The notes: generated by a model from the letters alone, not told the origin. Shown: positions 3,324 to 30,792, counted from the stretch's first letter. The stretch is DNA of 64,000 nucleotides from Escherichia phage vB_EcoM_WFK (MK373775.1), one strand, 5' to 3'. Numbers and translations: made by a program.

Positions 3324-4607
3324 ATGAGTAAAATCCAAAAATTATTGCGTGAATCTACAACGTCTACTAGCAACTCAATTGGTCGCCCAAATCTCGTTGC
3401 TTTGACTCGCGCTACGACTAAATTAATATATTCTGACATTGTAGCAACACAAAGAACTAATCAACCTGTTGCTGCTTTTTATGGTATCAAATATCTTAAC
3501 CCAGATAACGAATTCACATTTAAAACTGGCGCTACTTATGCTGGTGAAGCTGGATACGTAGACCGAGAAAAAATTACTGAGCTCACAGAAGAATCAAAAG
3601 TCACACTAAATAAAGGCGATTTTTTCAAATATAATAATATCGTCTATAAAGTGTTAGAAGATACACCATTTGCAGATATTCAAGAAAGTGATCTAGAATT
3701 AGCTCTTCAGATTGCAGTCGTTCATTTAAAGGTACGGTTATTTTCAGATGCAGCGGTAACAAGCAAATTTGAAAGCTCTGATAGCGAAATTTCTGATGCA
3801 AGATTCCAGATTAATAAATGGCAAACTTCAGTCAAATCTCGTAAACTTAAAACTGGTCTCACGGTTGAATTAGCGCAAGATTTGGAAGCGAATGGATTTG
3901 ATGCCCCTAACTTCTTAGAAGATTTGCTTGCTACTGAAATGGCAGATGAAATTAATAAAGATATTCTTCAGTCTTTAATTACTGTATCGAAACGTTATAA
4001 AGTTACTGGAATTACTGACACCGGATTTATTGACTTGAGCTATGCATCCGCTCCAGAAGCAGGTCGTTCGTTATATCGAATGGTGTGTGAAATGGTATCA
4101 CACATCCAAAAAGAGACAACTTATACTGCAACGTTTTGTGTAGCCTCAGCTCGTGCAGCTGCTATTCTTGCTGCTTCCGGTTGGTTAAAACATAAGCCAG
4201 AAGATGACAAGTATCTTTCACAAAATGCTTATGGATTCTTGGCAAATGGATTACCTCTTTACTGCGATACCAACAGCCCGTTAGATTATGTTATTGTGGG
4301 TGTTGTAGAAAATCTCGGCGAAAAAGAAATTGTAGGGTCCATCTTTTATGCTCCATACACTGAAGGAGTGGATTTAGATGACCCGGAACATGTCGGTGCA
4401 TTTAAAGTTGTAGTTGATCCGGAAAGCTTGCAACCGTCTATTGGATTATTGGTTAGATATGCTTTATCAGCAAATCCTTACACAGTAGCAAAAGATGAAA
4501 AAGAAGCGAGAGTAATTGATGGCGGGGACATGGATAAAATGGCGGGACGTTCAGACTTGTCTGTTTTACTCGGTGTTAAATTGCCTAAAATTATTATAGA
4601 TGAATAA
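3324..4607 (+). CDS. 24: Capsid vertex protein gp24
   Basis: 427 aa; strong similarity to T4 gp24 and paralogous to gp23. Confidence 0.95.
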   Translation: MSKIQKLLRESTTSTSNSIGRPNLVALTRATTKLIYSDIVATQRTNQPVAAFYGIKYLNPDNEFTFKTGATYAGEAGYVDREKITELTEESKVTLNKGDFFKYNNIVYKVLEDTPFADIQESDLELALQIAVVHLKVRLFSDAAVTSKFESSDSEISDARFQINKWQTSVKSRKLKTGLTVELAQDLEANGFDAPNFLEDLLATEMADEINKDILQSLITVSKRYKVTGITDTGFIDLSYASAPEAGRSLYRMVCEMVSHIQKETTYTATFCVASARAAAILAASGWLKHKPEDDKYLSQNAYGFLANGLPLYCDTNSPLDYVIVGVVENLGEKEIVGSIFYAPYTEGVDLDDPEHVGAFKVVVDPESLQPSIGLLVRYALSANPYTVAKDEKEARVIDGGDMDKMAGRSDLSVLLGVKLPKIIIDE

Positions 4608-4643
4608 ACAAAAAAAAAGGGACCGTAAGGTCCCTTTTTTTCG
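4608..4643. terminator. Bidirectional terminator between convergent genes 24 and rnlB (A-run, GGGACC-GUAA-GGUCCC hairpin, T-run)
   Basis: AAAAAAAAA, a perfect 6-bp hairpin, then TTTTTTT; works as hairpin plus U-run on both strands. Confidence 0.65.
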
Positions 4644-5642
4644 TTATGATACTAATTCAATCCATGCAGGACGCAGAACATCTTGCACCATTCGGACTAA
4701 TTCTTTCTTAACAAGATTCGGATTATCAGATGATGTTAATACAATACCTTCACGAGAAGTTTCTTCCAGAATATCTTGAACAGTCAATCCCATCACTTTG
4801 CCAAAAGATTTTGGCGTTACAGCCCCAATCTTAGAAATAACATTATTAACACGATTTAATGTAACATAACAAGCTAGAACATCAAGCAAGTTTTTGTCAA
4901 TTTCGGTTAATGGAACCTGAGTTTTAATAGGCTTATCAGACTTTTTCTTTTCACTGAATTTAGAGTTCTTGCACTTAATAGCTACACGAGTACCGTTTGG
5001 CAGCCATTTAGGGAAACAAGGCTTCAGAACATAACCTTCTGCCGTATTATCGCCAATAACATTAGCATCAAATACACAATTATTTGCTTCGACAAGGTCT
5101 TCTGACGCAGTAGCATTATAAGCGGCTAAGACGGAATCAAGGTCATTTGGAATCATGATAAGAGAATCAAATGTTCCACGACCAAGCATTGGTGCCATTT
5201 TAAAACCGAATTCATTACAGAAATCTTGCATTTCGTAATCGGTCAAATACGTATTATCACCACTTTCTGTATTGATAAGGATATCGAACACATAAAAATC
5301 TTTTTCACCGTAGTCAACACCTTTCTGGATTCCACCACCAGCAAATTCACCGAATACTTGATATGATACGGCTCGAGCTGTGTACATGAATTCCTGAACG
5401 GCTTTAATAGCTTTATCATACTTCTTGAGTACGATTTCATAACCATAAAAATCTTCTGCTGGAAGAATAGGGCCTGTGCGCTTGGCGCATGTGACGTTGC
5501 CACGTTCAATTATTAACGAGAAGTTGGTCCCATGGATTTTCTCACGTGCTACCCAAACACCAGTAGTCAAACCATTAGTGTAGAGTTTTTCAATAAACTT
5601 AGAGTTGTAGTGGTTTTCAAGACTGCTGTATTTCTTAAACAT
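4644..5642 (-). CDS. rnlB: RNA ligase 2 (Rnl2)
   Basis: 332 aa; KIHGTN nucleotidyltransferase lysine motif near the N-terminus; collinear similarity to T4 Rnl2. Confidence 0.95.
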
Positions 5643-7526: not shown

Positions 7527-9041
7527 ATGACTGACATTAAAGTACATTTTTATGATTTTAGTCACGTGCGCATTGAATGCGACGAAAGTACGTTTTACGA
7601 ACTTCGTGACTTTTTTAGCTTTGAAGCTGACGGGTATAAATTTAACCCAAAATATCGCTATGGGAACTGGGATGGTAGAATTCGACTTTTAGATTACAAC
7701 CGTTTGTTACCATATGGACTTGTAGGACAAATAAAAAAGTTCTGTAGCAATATGAGTTATTCTGTATGGATTGACCCTAAAATCTTTGAGACCGAAGACC
7801 TTACCAGAGAAGATTTTGACGCATGGCTTTCTAAACAAGAAATTTATTCAGGCAACGCCAAAATCGAACCACATTGGTATCAAAAAGATGCAGTATATGA
7901 AGGACTAGTTAATCGTCGTCGAATTTTAAACCTTCCGACATCAGCAGGTAAATCACTAATCCAAGCACTTTTAGCTCGATATTATCTAGAGAATTATGAA
8001 GGTAAAATTCTCATTATCGTCCCTACAACAGCATTGACAACCCAGATGGCTAATGATTTTGTTGATTATCGCTTGTTTAGTCATTCGATGATTAAGAAAA
8101 TTGGCGGTGGTGCTGATAAAGCAGACAAATCTAAAAACGACGCTCCAATTATTGTTGGCACATGGCAAACAGTAGTTAAGCAGCCTAAAGAATGGTTCTC
8201 TCAGTTCGGTATGATGATGAACGATGAATGCCACTTAGCAACAGGCAAAAGTATTTCTTCAATCATCGCAGGATTAAATAATTGTATGTTTAAATTCGGT
8301 TTATCTGGCTCATTAAGAGACGGAAAAGCCAATGTAATGCAGTACGTAGGTATGTTCGGCGAAATCTTCCGTCCTGTTAGCACGTCTAAATTAATGGAAG
8401 ACGGACAGGTAACTGAGCTTAAGATTAACAGTATTTTCCTTCGTTATCCGGACGAATTCACCGTTAAATTAAAAGGTAAAACATACCAAGAAGAAGTTAA
8501 AATTATTACCGGACTAAAACGACGTACAAAGTGGATTGCTCAACTTTCAGTCAAATTGGCTAAGAAAGACGAGAACGCCTTTGTAATGTTTAAACACGTT
8601 ACACATGGTAAAGAAATATTTGAAGCTATTAAAGAGCTTGGATACGAAAAAGTTTATTACGTATCGGGTGAAGTTGATACTGAAACACGTAACGCGCTTA
8701 AAGTCATGGCAGAAAATGGTAAAGGCATTATTATTGTCGCATCATATGGAGTATTCTCTACTGGTATTTCAGTCAAGAATCTTCATCATGTTATTTTCGC
8801 TCATGGTGTTAAATCAAAAATTATCGTACTTCAAACCGTAGGTCGCGTACTTCGTAAGCATGGTTCTAAAGCTGTTGCTACAGTTTGGGATCTCATCGAT
8901 GACGCAGGTGTAAAACCTAAATCATTAAATACTAAAAAGAAGTATACTCATCTTAATTACTTGTTAAAACACGGTATTGATCGTATCCAACGTTACGCTG
9001 ATGAGAAATTTAACTATGTAATGAAAACAATTAATTTATAA
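7527..9041 (+). CDS. uvsW: UvsW DNA/RNA helicase (SF2, recombination-repair)
   Basis: 504 aa; N-terminus nearly identical to T4 UvsW; Walker A LPTSAGKS and a DECH box. Confidence 0.95.
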   Translation: MTDIKVHFYDFSHVRIECDESTFYELRDFFSFEADGYKFNPKYRYGNWDGRIRLLDYNRLLPYGLVGQIKKFCSNMSYSVWIDPKIFETEDLTREDFDAWLSKQEIYSGNAKIEPHWYQKDAVYEGLVNRRRILNLPTSAGKSLIQALLARYYLENYEGKILIIVPTTALTTQMANDFVDYRLFSHSMIKKIGGGADKADKSKNDAPIIVGTWQTVVKQPKEWFSQFGMMMNDECHLATGKSISSIIAGLNNCMFKFGLSGSLRDGKANVMQYVGMFGEIFRPVSTSKLMEDGQVTELKINSIFLRYPDEFTVKLKGKTYQEEVKIITGLKRRTKWIAQLSVKLAKKDENAFVMFKHVTHGKEIFEAIKELGYEKVYYVSGEVDTETRNALKVMAENGKGIIIVASYGVFSTGISVKNLHHVIFAHGVKSKIIVLQTVGRVLRKHGSKAVATVWDLIDDAGVKPKSLNTKKKYTHLNYLLKHGIDRIQRYADEKFNYVMKTINL

Positions 9042-26346: not shown

Positions 26347-26679
26347 TCACTTATAAAGACACGGAATAGCTTTATAGTGGCATGTTACGAATTTCTGTTT
26401 AATTTCTTTAGGTTGTTTAAGTCCCAAAGCCACAAATGGATGTGGAACATTTCGAATTTGTCCAACTGGTAGTGGAGTCAAATCACCGACTTCAACAAAA
26501 CCTTCAGGAACATCAGGACCTACAGAATGAACTACACATAGTTCAGGAACTTCACCTTGAACACGTTTACCAATCACAAGTCCTGATTCGGTAACTTCTT
26601 CATCACCTGCTTGAGCGGGTTCAGAAACCAGAATGACATATTCACCAACAGCACGAATTGGGAGTTGTACTTCAGACAT
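26347..26679 (-). CDS. 31: Head assembly co-chaperonin gp31 (GroES analogue)
   Basis: 110 aa, near-identical to T4 gp31. Confidence 0.95.
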
Positions 26680-26709
26680 CTTATTTCCTTGTTGTTTGAC
26701 GATAGATTA

Positions 26710-26734
26710 ATAATACCATACTATTCGTAAAGCA
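26710..26734 (-). promoter_or_regulatory. MotA-dependent middle promoter of gene 31 (MotA box TGCTTTA, 12 nt, TATTAT)
   Basis: Minus strand reads ATATGCTTTAC, a 12-nt spacer, then TATTAT about 30 nt upstream of the ATG. Confidence 0.5.
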
Positions 26735-26736
26735 TA

Positions 26737-27045
26737 TTACATAAGAAGCAAACGTTCTACCGGAGTACCATCAACCGAAATTACTTTATCAAGGCGGAAA
26801 GAACGCCACTGACCTAACTTGGTATCGAATGCTCGAACTGATTCACGAGGTTCAGAACGAACTTCTGATGCCGGATTGTTATTTTCATATTTGACTTCAA
26901 GTTCATCGCGAGAAGCAAACATAGTGCGTACCTCACCGTTAGCCTTTTCAAATACAACACAATGAACGCCTACAGACAGAATAGTTTTAATACGTTCACG
27001 AAGAACCATAGTTTCTTGTTCAGTTAAAATCATATTATTCACCAC
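26737..27045 (-). CDS. Hypothetical 102-aa protein between cd and 31
   Basis: ORF overlapping the cd 3' end by 11 nt; no motif recognised. Confidence 0.45.
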   Translation of the reverse strand: MVNNMILTEQETMVLRERIKTILSVGVHCVVFEKANGEVRTMFASRDELEVKYENNNPASEVRSEPRESVRAFDTKLGQWRSFRLDKVISVDGTPVERLLLM

Positions 27046-27616
27046 AAAAGTTTCGGATTTGTTCCCAATTCAGAGAACGAAGATTATTACGAGAGTACTG
27101 AATTACTTCAATACCGGCTTGTTTTAGAATGTCTGCCCAATTTTCAGGAGATCGGTCGTATAATTCTGCATATACAACCTTTTTAATACCTGACTGTGTA
27201 ATAGCTTTAGTGCAATCAGGACACGGAGAAAGCGTCGTATATAACGTAGCACCTTCAATAGAATTACCTTTACGAGCTGCAAATAAAATTGCATTCAGTT
27301 CAGCATGGATTTCATTATTAGCAGACCATGCACTATGAGCGGCCCGATGTTCTTTAGCCAAAACAAAATTATCCACCCGTCCAAATGCTGTAGTGCCTTC
27401 TTTATGCCCAGCAACGATGACCGGGCTTGGTTTATTCTTCAACCAACCGTTTTCGGATGCATGTTCGCAACAGTTTGTACCACCTGAAGGAGAGCCATTA
27501 TAACCTGTAGAAATAATGCGTCCATCTTTTTCAATGACGGCGCCAACTTTCCATGAACAACATTTTGATTCTTGAGAAATCAGATATGCAATCTGAAGGT
27601 ATGTGCTAGCTTTCAT
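27035..27616 (-). CDS. cd: dCMP deaminase
   Basis: 193 aa; zinc-binding HAE...PCxxC deaminase signature (HAELNAI, PCPDC); T4 Cd is the same size. Confidence 0.92.
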   Translation of the reverse strand: MKASTYLQIAYLISQESKCCSWKVGAVIEKDGRIISTGYNGSPSGGTNCCEHASENGWLKNKPSPVIVAGHKEGTTAFGRVDNFVLAKEHRAAHSAWSANNEIHAELNAILFAARKGNSIEGATLYTTLSPCPDCTKAITQSGIKKVVYAELYDRSPENWADILKQAGIEVIQYSRNNLRSLNWEQIRNFCGE

Positions 27617-28608
27617 TATTGAACCTTATTAATATAAGTTAACAGCTCTTTAGTTTGTTCCCAACTGATGCACGCATCGGTAACGGAAACGCCATAGGAC
27701 ATATTATCAGAAATTTTTTGATTTCCTTCATGTAGGAACGATTCTATCATAATTCCTTTGACCAAATCATTAGCTGCTAAATTTTTACCAATACCAATTT
27801 GATTGCTATAATGCCCATCAGCGTTTGCATGGCTACAGTCAACCATTACATAATGATTCAGACCTACTGCCCTTGCTTTGTTAGAAGCTTCTTGAATATC
27901 AGAAGAATGATAGTTCGGGCCGTTGGTCCCGCCACGCAATACGATATGCGTATTCTGATTACCTTCAGCTTCAACAATGCCTACAGTACCATCGACGTCC
28001 ATACCCATATACCGATGAGGCCAGGCGGCACTATACATCGCGTCTATAGCTACTTTAATAGAACCATTGGTTGCGTTCTTGAAGCCTACGCACATCGGTA
28101 GACCTGAAGCAATTTCACGATGTGTCTGACTTTCAGTCGTACGGGCGCCAATAGCAACCCATGAGAAAATACCAGAAAGATACTTAATCGTGAATGGGTC
28201 TAATACTTCAGTTGCTAATGGAAGTCCCATACGTAGAAGTTTACGACACAATGTTCGTGCAACTATAAGACCGTGGTTCATATCAAAACTTCCGTCAAGA
28301 TATGGATCATTTACAAGACCTTTCCAACCTACGGTAGTTCGAGGCTTTTCAAAATAAACGCGCATCACTAACAGAACATTAGGAAGACGAGTTTGAAGTT
28401 CAGCCAGACGTTTGCCGTATTCAACAGCAGCAATAGGGTCATGAATTGAACAAGGACCTACAACGATAAGTTTGCGTGGGTCTTCACCATTCATAATCGA
28501 ATTAACTTGTTCGCGATGAGAAGCCACTTGTGATGCGTAAGCTTCCGACAAAGGAATAATCTCAGCCAGTTCTTTTGGAGAAATAAGTTTTCCGACGACA
28601 GGTAACAT
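27616..28608 (-). CDS. 3-deoxy-D-arabino-heptulosonate 7-phosphate (DAHP) synthase, class I (AroG/AroF/AroH-like)
   Basis: 330 aa; KPRTTVGWKGL motif; metal ligands in conserved context (GPCSIHD, DCSHAN, IESFLHEGNQ, TDAC); collinear with E. coli AroG over almost the full length. Confidence 0.9.
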   Translation of the reverse strand: MLPVVGKLISPKELAEIIPLSEAYASQVASHREQVNSIMNGEDPRKLIVVGPCSIHDPIAAVEYGKRLAELQTRLPNVLLVMRVYFEKPRTTVGWKGLVNDPYLDGSFDMNHGLIVARTLCRKLLRMGLPLATEVLDPFTIKYLSGIFSWVAIGARTTESQTHREIASGLPMCVGFKNATNGSIKVAIDAMYSAAWPHRYMGMDVDGTVGIVEAEGNQNTHIVLRGGTNGPNYHSSDIQEASNKARAVGLNHYVMVDCSHANADGHYSNQIGIGKNLAANDLVKGIMIESFLHEGNQKISDNMSYGVSVTDACISWEQTKELLTYINKVQ

Positions 28609-28616
28609 AACAATCC

Positions 28617-28805
28617 TTAGGAGATATAAACAGATTCTGATTCAACAATACCTTTAACCGGATTAGACAGGCTAAGTTGGTAGTGCTCAGATTTATGACC
28701 ATTCTCGATAGTAATGAGATAGCTCTCATTATAGTGTTCCATATACTCGAGTTGCTTCAACAAGACCATCACTGCATAATTTAAGATTAGTAATTTGGTC
28801 ACCAT
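28617..28805 (-). CDS. Hypothetical small protein
   Basis: 62-aa ORF; the start is uncertain and an internal ATG is possible. Confidence 0.3.
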   Translation of the reverse strand: MVTKLLILNYAVMVLLKQLEYMEHYNESYLITIENGHKSEHYQLSLSNPVKGIVESESVYIS

Positions 28806-28965
28806 CTTTAGGATTAACGATTATGAGAAAAGAACGTGGAGATTCTTGAATAACTCGTAATGTTGCATCTTGGAAACGTTCAGACACTTTATTGATGAGT
28901 GCTTGAGCAAATTCTTTTACTTTAATCTGAAATTCGTGTACTGTAATTGGGTTTTCACTTAGCAT
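28729..28965 (-). CDS. Hypothetical small protein
   Basis: 78-aa ORF with an early promoter upstream. Confidence 0.35.
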   Translation of the reverse strand: MLSENPITVHEFQIKVKEFAQALINKVSERFQDATLRVIQESPRSFLIIVNPKDGDQITNLKLCSDGLVEATRVYGTL

Positions 28966-29025
28966 TTCTATTTCCTCATTTGTTGGTAGAGTTATAGTAT
29001 CACAACTCCACCATGTTGTAAACCA

Positions 29026-29301
29026 TTAAATTGCTTTGCATTCAATTTTTTGTGTACCGAAATTGATATCACATTGGATAACTAAATCGCCGTCAAGATC
29101 AAATACCACGATGACGTGTGCAGACCCAGGGAGAAGAGTAATAGCAATAGAATCTACTTGGTCTGGGAGCAAAGCATTGAGTACATGAGTTACTTGAGCA
29201 TGAACTCTGAGTTCGGCTGCATTATCAAGCACTTCAAACATATTATTAGCAATAATCTGACTGAAGACTACCTTTACAATTTCAGAATAAGTTGGGAACA
29301 T
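29026..29301 (-). CDS. Hypothetical protein
   Basis: 91-aa ORF. Confidence 0.4.
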   Translation of the reverse strand: MFPTYSEIVKVVFSQIIANNMFEVLDNAAELRVHAQVTHVLNALLPDQVDSIAITLLPGSAHVIVVFDLDGDLVIQCDINFGTQKIECKAI

Positions 29302-29308
29302 AATTACC

Positions 29309-29533
29309 TCAGTGCACAGTATTTACTTTAACTCGAACAACAAATCGCTCGGTTGGTTCACCTACAGGAACAAACTCTACATGATATTCACCTTTGTAAC
29401 GAGTATTCAGATCATTACGAATTCCTGCGAGTTTGTTGATTAATGTAGGACTCATATTAAGTCCCACTAGTTTACGAAGCATTTTGTATGCTTCATCTTC
29501 GATTTCATGATGTTTATCGTACATAGTTTTCAT
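29309..29533 (-). CDS. Hypothetical protein
   Basis: 74-aa ORF. Confidence 0.4.
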   Translation of the reverse strand: MKTMYDKHHEIEDEAYKMLRKLVGLNMSPTLINKLAGIRNDLNTRYKGEYHVEFVPVGEPTERFVVRVKVNTVH

Positions 29534-29705
29534 TTAACCATTCAATTGCCTGGTCGACGTTATCAAATATACCGCCGTCCAAACGTTCTTCATGCTCATA
29601 GTCCAGCACATCAATACCGAACTGTCCATTTACTAAAGGCCAGGCAACAAACAAATATTCTTTATGCTGTTCGATGGCCTCAATCACTTCATATAATCGT
29701 TTCAT
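29514..29705 (-). CDS. Hypothetical protein
   Basis: 63-aa ORF; its stop overlaps the next gene's start. Confidence 0.35.
   Translation of the reverse strand: MKRLYEVIEAIEQHKEYLFVAWPLVNGQFGIDVLDYEHEERLDGGIFDNVDQAIEWLNENYVR

Positions 29706-30792
<1,087 letters not shown>

Follow-up and report, generated by a model that had tools for sequence, protein, structure and literature searches.

The DAHP synthase locus

The window, the whole 64,000-nucleotide stretch of Escherichia phage vB_EcoM_WFK (MK373775.1) that was analysed, is a typical Mosigvirus segment extending from gene 21 to rIIB. A 330-aa open reading frame (ORF) on the minus strand lies between cd and the homologue of cd.2, and upstream of it are homologues of cd.2, cd.3, cd.4 and pseT, ordered as in annotated relatives. 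A first-pass annotation made from the sequence alone had placed this ORF in the slot where T4 has small cd.x ORFs, and this placement held: T4 has cd.1 at this point and here the slot is filled by the DAHP synthase gene and a 120-nt leader. The genes and flanking features are listed below.

27035..27616, minus strand: cd, dCMP deaminase, 193 aa, downstream gene
27607..27619, minus strand: 13-nt repeat ATAATGAAAGCTA
27614..27618, minus strand: TAATG, the DAHP synthase stop TAA (27618..27616) overlapping the cd ATG (27616..27614)
27616..28608, minus strand: DAHP synthase coding sequence, 330 aa, type I-alpha, phage-specific subfamily (profile matches, alignment, fold)
28609..28728, minus strand: 120-nt leader between cd.2 and DAHP synthase
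28614..28618, minus strand: Shine-Dalgarno sequence AAGGA, 5 nt 5' of the DAHP synthase ATG (sequence reading)
28720..28732, minus strand: 13-nt repeat ATAATGAGAGCTA, partner of ATAATGAAAGCTA
28729..28965, minus strand: cd.2 homologue, 78 aa, upstream gene
28994..29022, minus strand: sigma-70-like promoter match TTTACA-17-TACTAT with TG, in the cd.3/cd.2 gap (consensus match only)

The ATG at 28608 was the first start codon past the in-frame stop in the ORF call. A longer upstream start was considered and rejected, as this ATG is already the first one and the MLPVV-type N-terminus is common to the clade of phage proteins described below.

The predicted protein matches type I-alpha DAHP synthases throughout

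Identification of the ORF as a DAHP synthase was confirmed by profile searches, alignment and the predicted fold. The protein matched Pfam PF00793 (DAHP_synth_1) with E=6e-76 and 255.3 bits (cut-off 25.5), spanning positions 8-269 of the 270 in the profile, and, across residues 6-327, the TIGR00034 aroFGH equivalog with 430.6 bits (cut-off 173.2); such matches are not expected by chance. Among the narrower profiles it passed PRK12755 (NF009395, the generic DAHP synthase subfamily nearest AroF) with 456.4 bits against a cut-off of 343, and it did not reach the cut-offs of the AroG equivalog NF006723 (365 against 568) or the AroH subfamily NF009396 (388.8 against 463). [quoted passage not shown]

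Conservation of the active site was assessed in an alignment of 25 phage-clade proteins (53-100% mutual identity) and 98 cellular homologues that included AroF, AroG and AroH. Collinearity with AroG, proposed earlier, holds over the full length and extends to AroF and AroH, except for three short indels close to the C-terminal third; the phage C-terminus is also shorter than that of the three E. coli enzymes. The KPRTTVGWKGL motif and the four metal ligands, also proposed earlier, were located as follows.

28315..28347, minus strand: KPRTTVGWKGL, residues 88-98, PEP/E4P phosphate-binding loop (alignment)
28450..28452, minus strand: metal ligand C53 (AroG C61; alignment)
27829-27831, minus strand: metal ligand H260 (AroG H268; alignment)
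27742-27744, minus strand: metal ligand E289 (AroG E302; alignment)
27676-27678, minus strand: metal ligand D311 (AroG D326; alignment)

All four metal ligands are kept and are invariant in the 123 aligned homologues, in which the K, R and T of the KPRT motif are likewise unchanged (123 of 123). The PEP- and E4P-binding residues (R92, K97, R99, T100, G163-A164-R165, K186 and R234 in AroG numbering) are all retained, KPRT included. The phage protein therefore has the same metal ligands, KPRT loop and PEP-binding Arg and Lys residues as AroF, AroG and AroH.

An AlphaFold2 model built from a 47-sequence alignment had a pLDDT of 91 and a pTM of 0.91. Compared by Foldseek with 1KFL, 1QR7, 4HSN and 5DCB, the model gave a TM score of 0.95 and an rmsd of 1.5-1.7 A, the superposed type I-alpha DAH7PS structures including those from N. 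meningitidis and E. coli. The model retains the (beta/alpha)8 barrel, the N-terminal helices including alpha0, and the beta6a/6b hairpin (strands 198-203 and 209-214). The phage protein is thus alike E. coli AroF (6AGM/6AGL), AroG (1KFL) and AroH in family, fold, length class and active site. Together these comparisons indicate that the DAHP synthase encoded at 27616..28608 is of class I (type I-alpha) and intact.

Distribution among T4-like phages

The first-pass annotation could not tell whether the gene is common among T-even relatives. Our survey found it to be common in T4-like phages of Enterobacterales and already annotated there. Megablast detected the gene in 145 phage records, 139 of them with a full-length identity of at least 95%, and the copy in Escherichia phage vB_EcoM_WFL6982 is 100% identical. 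The near-identical genes in the 139 Mosigvirus-type records carry the labels DAHP synthase, aroF or AroG. Those of Mosigvirus JS09, PhAPEC2, HX01, phiC120 and Shf125875 (95-100% identity) share the position of the WFK gene and the inhibitor-pocket signature described below. With tblastn the gene was found in 212 of 50,697 phage records, and copies of 55-77% identity were present in T4-like phages of Klebsiella, Serratia, Erwinia, Enterobacter, Edwardsiella, Proteus and Providencia.

Five or more phage genera have the gene at this same place, between pseT and cd. In Marfavirus, Winklervirus, Bragavirus and Kanagawavirus it lies 3' of pseT and the small cd.x genes and 5' of cd, and in the first three of these four genera one or two small ORFs (a cd.1-like gene) separate it from cd. 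The copies in these four genera (55-77% identity) have the same pocket signature as the WFK protein but lack the 120-nt leader. Two divergent metagenomic members were found on T4-like contigs, one of which shows the order frd-td-rnlA-alc-pseT-DAHPS-cd. Because complete phage genomes carry it with cd, cd.2 and pseT on its flanks, the gene is not host contamination and qualifies in this respect as an auxiliary metabolic gene (AMG). It is already known: besides the annotations in relatives, a phage DAHP synthase gene is mentioned in passing in PMC8022965, and the DAHP synthase of a Klebsiella Kanagawavirus has been proposed as an amino-acid AMG (PMC11845039). No biochemical study of the activity or inhibition of any phage DAHP synthase was found in the literature searched.

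The gene is absent from T4, where cd.1 (112 aa) lies between cd and cd.2, and from RB69, the type Mosigvirus, in which cd.2 is joined directly to cd. The Mosigvirus-type cd gene was present in about 150 records and the synthase in 139, with RB69 and about 10 others lacking it, so that phages can do without the gene in at least some conditions.

An alternative is that the phage enzyme has shifted its substrate and product, for instance to PEP plus arabinose-5-phosphate or some other sugar phosphate, and feeds the sugar-nucleotide chemistry of DNA hypermodification instead of the shikimate pathway; Mosigvirus DNA carries arabinosylated cytosine derivatives. The homology between DAHP synthase and KDO8P synthase speaks for this alternative. 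Several phage groups that bear the gene have been reported to carry putative arabinose-5-phosphate isomerase genes (PMC8056088; PMC13326640), which would fit such a shift. However, the E4P-phosphate motif KPRT and all substrate and metal residues are those of bona fide DAHP synthases, the reaction would consume a sugar phosphate rather than produce one, and the gene is absent from RB69, where arabinosylation was first discovered. The DNA-modification literature examined, including PMC8056088 and PMC13326640, does not mention the DAHP synthase gene. We consider a substrate shift very unlikely, and a link to arabinosyl-cytosine DNA modification was rejected, given arabinosylated DNA in RB69 without the gene and the true DAHP synthase substrate residues.

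Origin of the gene and the RB69 junction

The closest cellular homologues of the phage protein were merely 52-55% identical and were spread over many phyla. In a neighbour-joining tree, 29 phage sequences (the 25 above and four derived from the locus) formed one clade that contained no cellular member, a subfamily confined to T4-like phages, and midpoint rooting placed no single paralogue as its sister. The GC content of the gene (41%) and its GC3 (30%) are like those of the neighbouring phage genes, compared to 52% GC for host aroF. Recent capture from the host is ruled out by the low best cellular identity, the diversity of phyla and the phage-like base composition; the same comparisons indicate that the DAHP synthase has long resided in T4-like genomes.

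Compared with the window, RB69 is missing 1113 bp, and the missing segment is bounded by the 13-nt repeats ATAATGAGAGCTA and ATAATGAAAGCTA, both of which include a stop/start overlap of the form TAATG. In view of the conserved gene order in other genera, deletion of the DAHP synthase segment between the two repeats in the RB69 line is the simpler reading. In RB69 the same TAATG junction joins cd.2 to cd. The overlap is present in WFK as the first-pass annotation had stated when it described the synthase as translationally coupled to cd, but it is no special adaptation: RB69 has it without the gene, so the overlap is an inherited trait of the cd start, one that is older than the synthase cassette or has outlasted it, and did not evolve for the synthase.

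Absence from RB69 and T4 also bears on whether the gene has an enzymatic role at all. It could be a passenger, either a decaying acquisition or a non-catalytic protein that, for example, forms mixed oligomers with the host isozymes, and its dispensability in these two phages would agree with this. The dN/dS values within Mosigvirus (0.3-0.9) come from only 4-12 differences per pair and are uninformative, which leaves room for such a reading. Against it, intact ORFs occur in 212 phage records, the catalytic residues are all invariant over 53-100% identity, different genera share the gene order, and the base composition has ameliorated completely. We regard a passenger as highly improbable, the least probable of the explanations considered.

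Expression context

The sigma-70-like match at 29022..28994 sits where T4 has the early promoter Pe133295. No terminator-like site was found on the minus strand between this match and the DAHP synthase gene. A search for MotA boxes gave one match inside the DAHP synthase gene (28105-28113, minus strand) and none in the 120-nt leader. Judged by the promoter-like match, the absence of a terminator-like site, the Shine-Dalgarno sequence and the TAATG overlap, the DAHP synthase gene probably shares an early transcript with cd.2 and cd that starts upstream of cd.2.

The 120-nt leader is specific to Mosigvirus. A regulatory RNA in the leader was considered and rejected: no Rfam match at E<=1 was obtained across 26500-30000, and the leader fold had a z-score of -1.2. 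The leader may hold a small ORF.

The N-terminus and the inhibitor pocket are altered across the phage clade

The first-pass annotation had the protein starting 15-20 residues later than AroG and guessed that feedback inhibition could be altered or lost as a result. The alignment gave a smaller difference. Residue L8 of the phage protein aligns with AroG L16 and AroF L17, so that the protein is 8 and 9 residues shorter at the N-terminus than AroG and AroF, respectively. All 25 phage-clade proteins begin 5-9 residues before the position of AroG L16, compared to at least 13 for the cellular enzymes, and the conserved N-terminal (D/N)(D/N/E)(L/V/I) segment is absent from all 25. The regulatory residues lost with it include the equivalents of AroG D6/D7 and AroF N8. 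Shumilin et al. (2002) reportedly described contacts made by AroG D6/D7 and a contribution of the N-terminus to the inhibitor site, and Jossek et al. (2001) are said to have described a role of the AroF N-terminus in inhibition by Tyr.

All 330 positions were scanned for residues fixed in at least 95% of the phage proteins and fixed to another residue in at least 90% of the cellular ones. Exactly six positions were switched (AroG numbering): P150I, Q151K, D155G, S180P, F209Y and T223A. Their locations in the window are given below.

28183..28188, minus strand: I141-K142 in place of cellular P-Q (AroG P150-Q151; AroF P151-Q152), inhibitor pocket
28171..28173, minus strand: G146 in place of conserved Asp (AroG D155)
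28096..28098, minus strand: P171 in place of conserved Ser (AroG S180 / AroF S181)
28009..28011, minus strand: Y200 in place of conserved Phe (AroG F209)
27967-27969, minus strand: A214 in place of conserved Thr (AroG T223)

The changes Q to K, S to P, P to I, F to Y and D155 to G were present in all or in 24 of the 25 phage-clade members, and the six switches could date from one ancestral branch, in which case they count as six events and not as 25 x 6 independent observations. The switched positions were compared with a list of 14 positions that we had compiled in this analysis from published inhibitor-site and feedback-resistance residues and set before the comparison. Five of the six (P150I, Q151K, D155G, S180P and F209Y) belong to the list, an overlap with a hypergeometric P of 4e-7 over all positions and 9e-6 when only the 102 positions that are conserved in phages and cells alike are counted, and the sixth, T223A, lies two residues from the listed position V221. 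Compared to AroF and AroG, therefore, the phage protein lacks the first 8-9 residues and has six residues of the inhibitor pocket swapped. The intact pocket of the feedback-regulated isozymes (D6, D7/N8, Gln151, Ser180, P150 and F209) was not found in the phage protein. At the AroG S211 position it retains the Gly of Tyr-type enzymes. The earlier guess of lost feedback was thus strengthened by pocket replacements across the clade, while the truncation on which it had been based was overestimated.

Several of the switched positions are known from work on cellular enzymes. The side chains of Q151/Q152 and S180/S181 hold the main chain of bound Phe or Tyr, and AroG D155 stabilises the inhibitor region (PMC9529685). 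AroG P150L confers full Phe resistance and AroG S180F, F209A and F209S are feedback-resistant, while in C. glutamicum AroF the changes Q159A and S188F allow escape from 50 uM Tyr but make the enzyme less active or less stable (PMC9529685). Engineered or selected feedback-resistant variants of AroG (P150L, S180F, F209A/S, D146N) and of C. glutamicum AroF (Q159A, S188F, P155L/I) are altered at the pocket positions that the phage clade has switched. Laboratory variants carry one or two changes, often with a loss of activity or stability, whereas the phage enzyme has six changes together with the N-terminal truncation, naturally kept across several phage genera. Because single substitutions in C. 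glutamicum AroF lowered activity or stability, the predicted effect of the combined substitutions is uncertain.

Within the phage clade, 11 of the 14 listed positions were at least 95% conserved compared to a background of 41% (P=0.004). Such strong conservation suggests that the site has not simply decayed and fits a retained role, either in the structure of the dimer interface or in binding a ligand. The enzyme could therefore be active and still allosteric, the rebuilt pocket binding a different effector, such as a metabolite relevant to the phage, or an aromatic amino acid in a new pose. Near invariance of the changed residues (Lys142, Tyr200, Pro171, Gly146, Ile141 and Ala214) across a clade of 53-100% identity would be expected of such an enzyme, as would the pocket conservation just described, the beta6a/6b hairpin and helix alpha0 of the regulatory site still seen in the model, and the Tyr-type Gly at the AroG S211 position. 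However, the phage proteins have lost both polar anchors of the inhibitor backbone as well as the acidic residues of the N-terminus, location at the tight-dimer interface explains the pocket conservation equally well, and none of the results indicates a candidate ligand. We consider retained allostery possible but on the whole unlikely. That the pocket was rebuilt under selection (I-K-G-P-Y-A with the N-terminal truncation) for an infection-specific ligand appears quite unlikely. If pocket retargeting were true, entry into the shikimate pathway would be coupled to the metabolic state of the phage and not to host aromatic amino-acid pools.

Predicted role in infection

We consider it likely, reading from sequence and model, that the gene encodes an active, early-expressed DAHP synthase that is insensitive to the aromatic amino acids and feeds the shikimate pathway. 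Transcribed early with its neighbours from the predicted promoter upstream of cd.2, the gene would supply an enzyme that converts PEP and erythrose-4-phosphate to DAHP and Pi. Cellular enzymes of this type are shut off by Phe, Tyr or Trp through a pocket to which one subunit contributes its N-terminus and the partner subunit its alpha4, beta5 and beta6a-6b region. In the phage enzyme the N-terminal segment of this pocket is missing, the two residues that hold the inhibitor backbone are swapped (Gln to Lys and Ser to Pro) and three neighbouring pocket residues are replaced as well. With the N-terminal segment lost and the pocket residues replaced, carbon would enter the shikimate pathway regardless of the aromatic amino-acid pool. 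The flow of PEP and E4P into the pathway could then continue after host gene expression stops. The phage would be expected to benefit from aromatic amino acids for virion proteins, and possibly from chorismate-derived cofactors such as folate, which is used by the neighbouring thymidylate and hydroxymethylase chemistry.

The gene alone is of little consequence: most Mosigvirus genomes and several other T4-like genera have it as a standard part that is already annotated. The present analysis adds the rewiring of the regulatory pocket across the phage clade, which gives a sharp, testable prediction. Should the enzyme prove active and unaffected by Phe, Tyr and Trp, it would represent a phage strategy by which the committed step of aromatic biosynthesis is deregulated in the infected cell, and metabolic engineers would gain a naturally optimised feedback-resistant enzyme. 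Laboratory mutations made singly at these positions often reduce activity or stability (PMC9529685). Like the T4 nucleotide-metabolism cluster (cd, td, frd, nrdAB), the DAHP synthase is a host-type metabolic enzyme encoded in the early region, presumably to relieve a bottleneck in infection; unlike those AMGs, it would act on the supply of amino-acid and cofactor precursors.

Distribution and boundaries of the DAHP synthase cassette

We compared window positions 27035-28608, which hold the DAHP synthase gene and the adjacent dCMP deaminase gene cd, with phage records. Among Mosigvirus records the synthase gene was far more uniform than its neighbor, with at least 99% nucleotide identity in 105 records, whereas cd reached at least 99% in only 7 and was 90-99% identical in most. 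This comparison suggests that the cassette either spread recently through recombination or is under unusually strong constraint. The window was also compared to the corresponding locus of RB69, a Mosigvirus without the synthase, and the synthase region was found to be bounded by direct repeats.

27607-27619 and 28720-28732, minus strand: 13-nt direct repeat ATAATGA(A/G)AGCTA (RB69 counterpart at 8237-8255 of locus L005)

The 1113 bp between the two repeats is exactly the segment absent from RB69, and both copies contain the TAATG stop/start overlap. It appears from this comparison that the DAHP synthase cassette was deleted (or inserted) via microhomology at the cd start.

Several annotation oddities were evident in the public records (KP869101, KP869104, KP869111, MG589383 and NC_054940). 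In several O157 typing phages and in phi25-307, the cd gene is named 'ribD riboflavin biosynthesis protein'. Shigella phage JK45 is filed as Tequatrovirus, although in the cd/DAHP synthase region it shares 99% identity with this Mosigvirus window.

Putative leader ORF and MotA-box-like motifs

The 120-nt leader between cd.2 and the synthase gene is missing from other genera. A putative small ORF was detected inside and just upstream of it.

28617-28805, minus strand: putative small ORF

If translation began at the first ATG, this ORF would encode 62 aa; a start at the ATG at 28742 would give 41 aa. Its TAA stop overlaps the ribosome-binding site of the synthase. A 50-aa CDS is annotated at this position in JK45; none is annotated there in PhAPEC2.

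The MotA-box-like motif WWTGCTTYA occurred 25 times in the whole window as compared to about 10 expected, and 0 of 100 shuffles reached 25. This excess is consistent with T4-type middle promoters. Examples include the following two copies.

26728-26736, minus strand: MotA-box-like copy just upstream of the gene 31 homologue
28105-28113, minus strand: MotA-box-like copy within the synthase coding region

A distant homologue in Aeromonas phage HJ05

A distant DAHP synthase homologue was detected in Aeromonas phage HJ05, a 79 kb phage that is not T4-like.

3899-5062 of the HJ05 locus (L009): 387 aa, 38% identical, annotated as hypothetical

This protein retains all four metal ligands. Five of the six pocket positions (AroG P150, Q151, D155, S180, F209 and T223) are non-canonical (A-H-P-P-V) with Thr kept at the sixth. 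This may be a phage enzyme whose regulatory site was altered independently.
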